From the NCBI GenBank assembly GCA_002291925.1, contig DBAY01000024.1, forward strand, positions 1,078 through 65,077: a stretch of 64,000 nt of DNA, written 5' to 3'. The notes beneath the pieces are model-generated. The model was not told the DNA's origin and made no database searches. It was given only the letters and a program-made list of their open reading frames with translations. The translations under genes and the position numbers were made by a program. The stretch is from Alphaproteobacteria bacterium UBA998 (GTDB lineage: Bacteria > Pseudomonadota > Alphaproteobacteria > Rickettsiales > UBA998). Within the stretch, counting starts at the first letter, position 1. Each line of letters opens with the position of its first letter. Positions 29,730 through 30,112 of this stretch are shown piece after piece.

Positions 29730-30065
29730 CTATCCGCTTGTTCTGCCCTCACCCTGAGCTTGTCGAAGAATGATTGGTGGCTTCGATCTGGCCAAGGTTT
29801 TAAGGGCTTCGAAATCTCCCTGCATGAGGGCTTCCTTCTTCGCCCGGCCCCAGCCCTTAATCTGACGTTCTGCCTGAATGGCCTGCTCAATGCGGTCAAA
29901 GTGCTGTTGATAGACAAGTTCAACAGGGCGCTTATTGGATGTGTAGCCACCATAGTGACCTGAATTATGTTCATTTACCCGATGAGACAGGTCGTTATCC
30001 CGGCGCGTCATGCCTGTGTAATAACTTCCGTCAGCGCAACGCAGAATATACACAAATGCACCCAT
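29730..30065 (-). CDS. GIY-YIG nuclease family protein (UPF0213-like)
   Basis: MGAFVYILRCADGSYYTGMTRRDNDLSHRVNEHN carries the GIY/YIG signature and the downstream R and E/N positions. The last roughly 14 codons (..PPIILRQAQGEGRTSG) are encoded by a palindromic-repeat motif. Confidence 0.85.
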   Translation of the reverse strand: MGAFVYILRCADGSYYTGMTRRDNDLSHRVNEHNSGHYGGYTSNKRPVELVYQQHFDRIEQAIQAERQIKGWGRAKKEALMQGDFEALKTLARSKPPIILRQAQGEGRTSG

Positions 30066-30112
30066 GACTCACCAAATCCTTCGACTTCGCTGCGCTACGC
30101 TCAGAATGAGGG
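29741..30112. mobile_element. putative GIY-YIG cassette bounded by inverted CCCTCA..CTGAGC..TCGAAG repeat motifs
   Basis: The left motif is gccctcaccctgagcttgtcgaagaatgat (29745-29774). The right motif is ccttcgacttcgctgcgctacgctcagaatgaggg (30078-30112), whose reverse complement is ccctcattctgagcg...gaagtcgaagg. The cassette interrupts the fliR-fliQ junction. Mobility is inferred, not shown. Confidence 0.45.

Follow-up and report, generated by a model that had tools for sequence, protein, structure and literature searches.

SsnA of Neisseria meningitidis is a 94-residue protein consisting of a single GIY-YIG domain (CDD cd10448), which binds the NTS hairpin (CGTCATTCCCGCGMAVGCGGGAATCYRG) solely as single-stranded DNA (ssDNA), recognizes only one strand, and cuts upstream of the hairpin (Chenal et al., Nat Commun 2025, PMC11893778). 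The protein does not bind RNA. An "Ssn-related motif" (SRM) lies near the gene in 71% of the homologues and on both sides of it in 42%, and the authors likened the NTS-ssnA-NTS arrangement to an insertion sequence and to the REP/RAYT systems. In that study, Ssn proteins were defined by cd10448 and by a blastp match to SsnA (CAX49033.1) with E < 1e-10 and at least 75% coverage, and the SRM by the pattern HGTCWYN(0-2)YYVSBRHN(0-5)WNVSBRGN(0-2)RNCYNB within 500 bp of the gene (PMC11893778). NTS-like repeats had been described earlier as CGTC-tagged REPs with no associated transposase (Di Nocera et al., BMC Genomics 2013, PMC3733652). Here we analyze a 64,000-nucleotide stretch of contig DBAY01000024.1 from Alphaproteobacteria bacterium UBA998 (referred to as the window), in which a gene for a 111-residue GIY-YIG nuclease lies between the flagellar genes fliQ and fliR and is bracketed by inverted copies of a different hairpin repeat.

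An earlier reading of the window, made from sequence only, had proposed that the GIY-YIG protein and the repeat family are functionally linked, in analogy to RAYT/REP. The analogy is right but not new, since the Ssn/NTS authors drew it as well, and the nuclease-hairpin hypothesis itself was stated and partly tested for this sister system in 2025 (PMC11893778). What is new here is a distinct protein clade, a distinct and structurally richer hairpin that the published motif misses, and an allelic series at a single junction. We consider it probable that the gene encodes an Ssn-like nuclease with a two-tier ssDNA hairpin as its cognate site, and that the two are carried as a horizontally acquired cassette.

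The association of gene and repeat was assessed in 80 metagenomic loci encoding homologues at 50-66% identity. Nearly all of them had the sequence CCTCAYCC-TGAG[G/C]-(variable insert)-TCGAA-GGRTGAGG just 5' of the gene and its reverse complement just 3' of it. We refer to the sense copy (relative to the gene) as F and to the inverted copy as R. An F copy was found within 150 nt upstream of the gene in 59 of 78 loci, an R copy within 150 nt downstream in 55 of 74, and both in 43 of 72, with median distances from the gene of 31 nt (F) and 32 nt (R). Among control open reading frames (ORFs) of the same loci, the corresponding counts were 4/116, 3/116 and 0/116. The density of the element was 8.3 per kb within 150 nt of the gene, compared with 0.02-0.18 per kb beyond 500 nt.

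The 228 distinct element copies fell into four subtypes, namely a short form S (CTGAGCYTGTCGAAG), A (CTGAGC..AGTCGAAG), B (CTGAGGAG-stem-loop-GTCTCGAAG) and C (CTGAGGTG..CCTCGAAG). The F and R copies at one gene shared their subtype in 44 of 45 loci (22 expected; the maximum of 2000 shuffles was 31), and the nearest protein neighbour had the same hairpin subtype in 53 of 71 cases (28 expected). The link proposed in the sequence-only reading is thus strongly supported: the nuclease gene and the hairpin repeat belong together across the protein clade. The repeat was also found dispersed as gene-less dimers, mostly in the order R-spacer-F (46) or F-spacer-R (18), with examples in the window (27697-27800), at a flagellar junction of a relative (L214, see below) and in Methylobacterium bullatum.

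Well-preserved copies form a two-tier hairpin, with an outer stem (CCTCAYCC/GGRTGAGG), an invariant internal loop (T-GAG..CTC-GAA), and an inner stem of 5-7 bp of free sequence, often with a C-GNA-G cap. In 52 aligned type-B copies, both sides of four inner-stem pairs had changed in 21-26 sequences, and the pairing was broken in at most 2. Over the 18-pair structure, 91% of cells were paired (77% in shuffles), and the covariation score was 0.334, compared with 0.093 for shuffled sequences and at most 0.07 with slid partners. The outer stem covaried as well (CATC/GATG, CATG/CATG, CACC/GGTG, CGTC/GACG), and the consensus hairpin folded as DNA at z = -5.5. Between the two copies at one gene, the inner-stem sequences were unlike and the pairing alone was preserved. 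The invariant nucleotides fall in the internal loop and the pairs that close it (C-T-G-A-G-G-A-G / G-T-C-T-C-G-A-A-G) and are therefore likely to be the recognition determinants. A C-GNA-G apex, a loop type that gives very stable DNA mini-hairpins, was present in 56% of the long copies. In about 40% of the 228 copies (L006-L085), the 3' half of the outer stem (GATGAGG) was swapped for a constant unpaired GACGCAC tail, and this conserved tail could mark a cleavage or junction site.

Searches with the window and six loci against Rfam, at gathering and permissive thresholds, returned only sub-threshold matches to generic hairpin (miRNA/sRNA) families, and a full-text literature search for the motif strings gave chance primer matches only. 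A hammerhead ribozyme was considered for the likeness of CUGAGGA to the CUGANGA box and was rejected, as the element has neither a third helix nor a GAAA directly after the inner stem and works both ways round.

In the window, the pattern CCCTCANCCNGAGCNTGTCGAAG with up to three mismatches had three matches, at 27706-27728 (+), 27762-27784 (-) and 29746-29768 (+), compared with 0.00 in shuffles. The last of these belongs to the R copy downstream of the gene (29745..29777, reading as F on the plus strand; 11.4 bits with a covariance model), a short variant CCCTCACC-CTGAGCTTGTCGAAG-AATGATTGG that overlaps the last codons of the ORF. The F copy upstream of the gene (30070..30113, minus strand; 11.7 bits) is a long variant, CCCTCATTC-TGAGC-GTAGCGCAGCGAAG-TCGAAG-GATTTGGTGAG, that ends 4 nt ahead of the GIY-YIG start codon and has its core at 30079-30104 according to a looser regular expression. 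The exact pattern misses this copy, previously placed at 30078-30112, because it is a longer variant, with 13-14 additional bases between TGAGC and TCGAAG; it was detected by a repeat finder, by the looser expression and by the covariance model, which was built from other genomes. The claim that inverted motif copies bracket the gene therefore holds, with the qualification that one of them is of the longer type.

Both gene-flanking copies are degenerate. The outer stem of the upstream copy has decayed, and neither copy on its own folds better than shuffles (z -1.3, and +0.2 for the upstream copy). It is also unusual that the window cassette mixes an A-type F with an S-type R, although the two types fall within the CTGAGC..GTCGAAG group; S-type copies accompany the closest homologues (P0002, P0008, P0030). 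The gene-less dimer in the lpxB-flhB spacer (27697..27800, F-21nt-R) is well formed. Its two inverted copies of the motif, F at 27705-27737 (+) and R at 27753-27785 (reading as F on the minus strand), form the arms of a single long hairpin, as the sequence-only reading had recognized. The arms of 29 nt are 83% complementary and 21 nt apart, the hairpin folds at -30.6 kcal/mol (z = -4.8), and FR dimers elsewhere are similarly spaced (median core-to-core gap 31.5). The covariance model scored 27753-27785 at 18.8 bits (E 0.0016). With the model derived from type-B hairpins, all four window copies were among the top matches, but only one of the four was individually significant, so that this model is unusable for a census of degenerate copies.

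The protein encoded between the two flanking copies (29730..30065, minus strand) matches the Pfam GIY-YIG family PF01541 with E 5.4e-16 and 59.1 bits (cut-off 22.6), residues 4-77 corresponding to profile positions 3-76 of 78. No second domain was found with Pfam or NCBIfam in the 111 residues, in agreement with the single-domain Ssn family (about 90-150 aa). The conserved domain comprises residues 1 to ~95. The last ~15 codons (..PPIILRQAQGEGRTSG) run through the downstream repeat copy, residues ~97-107 being its translation, as had been noticed before. Homologues end at about residue 94-99 or have other repeat-encoded tails, such as FDKLRVR (FDKLRxR), PELVEG, HPSTSSG, HPSRRPPSAGSSG and APQDEE, and the hairpins explain why spurious tails and short ORFs appear among the alphaproteobacterial homologues examined.

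In an alignment of 47 clade members, the window protein has all 22 invariant columns, including Y6, Y16, G18, R29 and H33, as well as the nearly invariant E66. In the public JGI annotation, this ORF begins at Met19, and the resulting protein of 93 aa lacks the first catalytic tyrosine motif. The 111-residue reading is correct, because residues 1-18 hold the clade-invariant Y6, C10, Y16 and G18 that the JGI call cuts off.

The gene lies in a flagellar gene cluster with the minus-strand order flgB, flgC, fliE, fliQ, GIY-YIG gene, fliR, flhB. Upstream of the insertion, fliQ (30144..30434, minus strand; PF01313, E 3.6e-31) is intact, and so is fliR downstream of it (28950..29723, minus strand; PF01311, E 1.8e-55, whole profile), followed by flhB (27855-28946, minus strand). 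The products of all three genes match their own Pfam families end to end, and FliQ and FliR are full-length. The distance from the fliQ stop to the fliR start is 420 bp, and the fliR ATG follows 6 nt after the GIY-YIG stop codon. The Pfam matches of the three proteins bear out the earlier placement of the ORF between fliR and fliQ on the same strand. An identical 96-aa FliQ protein was found on 4 contigs. The G+C content at third codon positions (GC3) is 0.50 in the GIY-YIG gene and 0.82-0.89 in six neighbouring genes. A scan of 27400-30500 for promoters and terminators found nothing, and thus no promoter-like site ahead of the GIY-YIG gene. Within the 64-kb window, no further GIY-YIG gene was present.

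In order to place the insertion, we compared the junction with that of relatives, five loci being taken from a FliR scan of a genome collection and closer relatives from a protein search and contig look-ups. Eight related fliQ-fliR junctions had no GIY-YIG gene and spacers of 9-118 bp. With the identity of FliR to the window protein in brackets, the spacers were 95 bp, AT-rich and without the element, in L213 (90%), where the contig ends in flhB; 118 bp, holding a gene-less F-19nt-R dimer, in L214/L215 (75%); 19 bp in L001 (UBA1002; 74%); 25 bp in L218 (74%); 52 bp in L222 (74%); 25 bp in L220 (73%); 30 bp in L216 (72%); and 9 bp in L002 and L003 (about 45%). The GIY-YIG gene is thus an insertion between fliQ and fliR, and the one junction exists in three states: empty (L001, L216, L218, L220, L222), with a gene-less dimer (L214/L215), and gene-bearing (window). 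The eight gene-free junctions, the contrast in GC3 and the full length of fliQ and fliR agree with the earlier view that a cassette landed within an operon without disrupting it, and the empty sites that this view called for do exist.

The dimer at the L214 junction reads CCTCATGGTGAGCCTTTCGAACCATGA .. CCCTTGACAGGCTCAGGGTAAGG. Its R arm together with 9 nt beyond it is identical to the window at 26 of 32 positions. The same extension is present at another L214 copy, so that it may be part of the element and not orthologous flank. By FliR identity, L214 is weakly sister to the window and L213. Arrival of the gene at, or together with, the repeat site is favoured over ancient presence followed by loss because of the foreign composition of the gene, although both readings are possible. 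As a separate observation, L213, the closest relative, has 47% G+C over 2.9 kb, compared with 61% in the window, a large shift between close relatives.

A second spacer of this region also differs between relatives. Between the convergent genes lpxB and flhB, the window has 403 bp (27452-27854) consisting almost wholly of repeats. In L214/L215 this spacer is 341 bp long and has the same kinds of repeats, namely NTS-like hairpins and an FR dimer, while in six relatives it is 0-6 bp long or the genes overlap (6 bp in L001, 5 bp in L222, 1 bp in L216, overlap in L218 and L220). The FR hairpin and its GGGGCGGG-TTTTTT end are immediately followed by a tandem heptamer (ACCGAAT x3, 27829-27849).

Elsewhere, the cassettes have diverse neighbours, the largest common neighbour family being shared by 5 of the 61 loci with enough flanking sequence. 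The closest homologues lie between the genes of the propionyl-CoA carboxylase subunits (pccB-GIY-pccA), on the same strand and with a stop codon that overlaps the pccA start; these cassettes have the layout R-spacer-F-gene-R with perfect S-type hairpins. On a Sphingomonas parapaucimobilis plasmid, a cassette is found between nrdR and an RNA methyltransferase gene and overlaps the latter. Such in-operon genes, which share the strand of their neighbours and whose stop codon runs into the next gene's start, are those of L223 (1460-1801), L224/L225 and L208 (1501-1821), and the upstream neighbour was co-directional in 39 of 52 loci (according to crude ORF calls). Because of these in-operon positions, the co-directional neighbours and the lack of a promoter-like site in the scanned region of the window, the cassette looks promoter-less and tolerated within operons. 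In plasmid and viral collections, four plasmid matches and one confirmed viral match (L212) were found, and neither is a preferred vehicle.

The cassette termini are sharply inverted (CCTCATCCTGAG..CTCAGGATGAGG) in 42 loci. No consistent target-site duplication was detected in these 42 loci, the longest common substring of 3.71, compared with 3.22 for permuted partners, being driven by two loci with duplicated R-spacer-F dimers. In these two loci (L043, L085), the GIY-YIG gene lies between two occurrences of the same R-spacer-F dimer, whose 13-nt spacers are identical, an arrangement that a single crossover of a circular R-spacer-F form with a chromosomal dimer, or a tandem duplication, would leave. 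A 544-bp block (R-spacer-F-gene-R-spacer-F) is 99.8% identical between L068 (22-565) and L071 (72-615), with unrelated flanks and breaks exactly at the element tails. The block is suggestive of mobility, but metagenome mis-assembly at repeats is possible, and we did not use it as evidence.

In order to relate the clade to the Ssn system, we used as stand-ins GIY-YIG proteins flanked by exact NTS copies, which were obtained by scanning viral contigs with the NTS consensus. One such locus (L119) has NTS(+) at 7785-7812, the gene at 7823-8134 and NTS(-) at 8138-8165, that is, a sense copy, the gene and an inverted copy. The window protein is 35-40% identical to the NTS-flanked proteins over 71-90 residues (blastp E 2e-10 to 4e-16). 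The clade profile aligns full-length with the NTS-flanked profile (hhalign, 98.9%, E 2.4e-17, 38% identity) with matching catalytic Tyr/Tyr/Arg/His/Glu columns, so that Y6, Y16, R29, H33 and E66 of the window protein correspond to Y8, Y19, R29, H33 and E66. As judged by these stand-in proteins, without a claim of formal membership, the clade is homologous to the Ssn system and probably works like one.

The earlier label "UPF0213-like" was a fair one, as the best relatives with solved structures are the UPF0213 proteins BH0048 (1ZG2, E 6e-12) and EF2693 (1YWL, E 4e-9), and the window protein is equally close to the NTS-flanked Ssn-type proteins. B. subtilis YazA is 42% identical to it. The Ssn-type profile gives the window protein 54 bits, more than UPF0213 proteins (27-34 bits). 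The N-terminal half of the clade is shared with UPF0213 (C-x-DGS-YY-G, GGYT-x2-RRPV) and unlike Ssn (AS-x-RNGTLY-G), while the C-terminal K-G/K-W-x-R-A-x-K motif is shared with the Ssn-type proteins.

The flanking repeat was also considered as a published SRM and rejected, as no match lay near the gene. The SRM pattern had 8 matches in the window (0.5 expected), four of them clustered at 27525-27679. Classical NTS-like, CGTC-tagged hairpins (e.g., CGTCATTCCAGCGAAAGCTGGAATCCAG) are located at 27525-27679, 4111-4138, 34188-34215, 62756-62778 and 62795-62822. The four at 27525-27679 alternate in orientation and are packed beside the FR dimer; those at 62756 and 62795 form a head-to-head dimer, of which the SRM pattern misses the copy at 62756. 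Since the window has these hairpins and no canonical Ssn-type gene, such a gene is predicted elsewhere in the genome. A third repeat family is an identical 25-mer, GATGCTGAAACAAGTTCAGCATGAC, itself a hairpin, at 4082-4106, 34152-34176 and 48755-48779; an NTS-like hairpin lies at a distance of 5-12 nt from two of the three copies.

On the reading that we prefer, the cassette would consist of the small GIY-YIG nuclease gene and its cognate hairpin repeat in the arrangement sense copy, gene, inverted copy. By analogy with SsnA, the nuclease would most likely bind the hairpin in single-stranded DNA, read the invariant loop nucleotides of one strand, and nick nearby. An SsnA-like cut 5' of the sense hairpin would then place one nick outside each cassette end, on opposite strands, and we speculate that the two outer nicks could start the copying or recombination of the unit as a whole. 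The nuclease would, on this reading, drive the spread of gene and repeats. The cassette was presumably acquired horizontally and is now co-oriented with, and probably read through within, the flagellar genes between fliQ and fliR. The gene-less dimers at 27697-27800 and at the L214 junction would be its non-autonomous companions.

Several points weigh against this reading. The activity of the clade, its strand preference and its ssDNA specificity are extrapolated from SsnA. Within 500 bp of the gene, the SRM pattern has no match in the window, where the closest one is about 2 kb away (27651-27679), nor at any of the 80 homologue loci (0/80). With the clade profile, 1ZG2 and 1YWL of UPF0213 obtain 62.7 and 56.9 bits and the NTS-flanked Ssn proteins 42-59 bits, so that the clade is as close to the former as to the latter. 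Marks of transposition, such as a target-site duplication, were looked for and not found. Copies of the repeat are scarce at a distance from the gene, with 4 in the 64-kb window and one dimer in 100 kb of M. bullatum. Finally, the flanking copies in the window are decayed, of different length variants and unable to fold on their own, and the cassette may be inactive on them.

Among the alternatives, one is a variant of the preferred reading that specifies how the cassette spreads. The protein might be a free-standing homing endonuclease that cuts gene-less FR dimers, and repair from a gene-bearing copy would then produce F-gene-R by gene conversion and not by transposition. We hold this to be possible but unlikely. 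It would explain the three states at one orthologous junction, and also the similarity of the R arms of window and L214 (26/32) next to F arms of different variants, a pattern that the replacement of one side would leave. A recent arrival of the gene in an older site is suggested by the low GC3, and cassettes recur between co-functional genes on the same strand (fliQ/fliR, pccB/pccA, nrdR/methyltransferase), a habit shared with the seg and mob genes of phages. However, with 30-45 bp the arms are short for recombinational repair, and the DNA-binding domain that homing GIY-YIG enzymes carry is missing from the protein. Gene loss from an ancestral F-gene-R would yield the same three states, and the R arms may not be orthologous, given the extension at the other L214 copy.

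In its boldest form, which we likewise regard as unlikely, the clade and the TGAG/TCGAA hairpin would be a second, hitherto undescribed nuclease-hairpin pair, outside the SRM definition and possibly outside the Ssn clade, in which a promoter-less selfish gene homes into gene-less dimers, L214 carrying the "empty" and the window the "filled" allele. A minimal nuclease of 95 residues would then have hairpin dimers as its targets and also as its landing pads, and the system would be a bacterial chromosomal counterpart of intron-less homing.

It is also conceivable, if doubtful, that the cassette arrived as the preferred reading has it but is now a dead relic at this site, with the gene merely read through and the flanking sites decayed; the two views do not exclude each other. 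Both flanking copies have lost most of their outer stem (z -1.3 and +0.2), they belong to length variants whose combination is exceptional elsewhere (1 of 45 loci discordant), and the copy number in the window is low. Against this, the ORF is intact with every clade-invariant residue, the low GC3 indicates little time for decay, and the FR dimer at 27697-27800 is well formed.

A role at the level of RNA appears improbable. The hairpins could act as structures in the 5' and 3' untranslated regions that control how stable the nuclease mRNA is or how well it is translated, or that insulate this mRNA inside host operons; the protein would then not have them as DNA targets. What speaks for this is that the sense copy invariably falls within the 5' leader, with a median of 31 nt between its end and the start codon (4 nt in the window), that the stem contains an invariant G-T/G-U pair, and that covariation cannot tell RNA from ssDNA. 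Yet the downstream copy is a reverse complement, so that the conserved loop nucleotides are not in the mRNA there, and gene-less dimers occur far from any GIY-YIG gene (27697-27800; L210 of M. bullatum). No Rfam family reached its gathering score, the C-GNA-G apex is a loop type of DNA mini-hairpins, and SsnA does not bind RNA (PMC11893778).

A chance meeting of a housekeeping UPF0213/SLX1-like repair nuclease gene with generic REP-like palindromes that gather in any spacer is very improbable, as the UPF0213 proteins among the best solved relatives and the richness of the genome in other palindromic repeats (e.g., the CGTC/SRM type at 27525-27679) are outweighed by the both-sided flanking of 43/72 loci and 0/116 control ORFs, the roughly 50-fold drop in repeat density beyond 500 nt from the gene, the specific orientation, the tracking of protein by subtype, the foreign composition of the gene and its absence from the orthologous site in eight relatives.

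To our knowledge, the Ssn enzymes are the only site-specific nucleases known to act solely on ssDNA, and they are under development as tools. The range of orthogonal enzyme/site pairs would grow with a clade whose recognition hairpin is clearly different and more elaborate. The series of empty, dimer and gene-bearing states at one junction can be used to work out how such cassettes spread, a question that the Ssn work left open.

The locus shares its layout with the RAYT/REP (REPIN) systems, in which one protein gene lies between inverted hairpin copies and the repeat is dispersed as gene-less inverted dimers; recognition of the repeat as ssDNA would be a further likeness, if the clade follows SsnA. 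The enzymes themselves are related neither in sequence nor in fold. RAYTs are HUH Y1 transposases of the IS200/IS605 type that cut and rejoin DNA, whereas a GIY-YIG enzyme only hydrolyses it, and the window protein has GIY-YIG as its sole domain and no HUH Y1 tyrosine transposase domain, so that the likeness is one of layout. With the free-standing GIY-YIG homing endonucleases of phages (Seg, Mob, the I-TevI family) it shares the catalytic domain and an in-operon position on the same strand that leaves the neighbours undisrupted. Those enzymes have a C-terminal DNA-binding domain and cut the gene-less allele as duplex DNA, while the window protein is the catalytic domain alone: it stops right after this domain, and its tail is translated repeat.

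UPF0213 proteins are, like the window protein, single-domain proteins of the same size, but they are without the C-terminal K-G/K-W-x-R-A-x-K signature, and we know of no repeat association for them. The element resembles the CGTC-tagged REPs in that the latter are mostly head-to-head dimers (PMC3733652), and in its beginning, CCTC-AT, which in some copies is CGTC-AT. The CGTC REPs have stems of 8-9 bp and loops of 4-5 nt, whereas the element has an insert of 13-40 nt with conserved TGAG/TCGAA between its stem halves, and its tag, unlike theirs, is itself paired (CCTC..GAGG).

The closest counterpart is the Ssn/NTS system. The two differ in copy number, which appears low for the window element and reaches hundreds of NTS copies in Neisseria, and in the hairpin, since in place of the NTS (CGTCAT-TCCCGC-GMAV-GCGGGA-ATC) the window clade has a two-tier structure with the invariant internal loop TGAG / TCGAA and a free inner stem. 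In both, a single-domain GIY-YIG protein of ~95-110 aa is encoded between sense and inverted hairpin copies, the repeat also occurs without the gene and often as a dimer, and the variants of protein and repeat co-vary.

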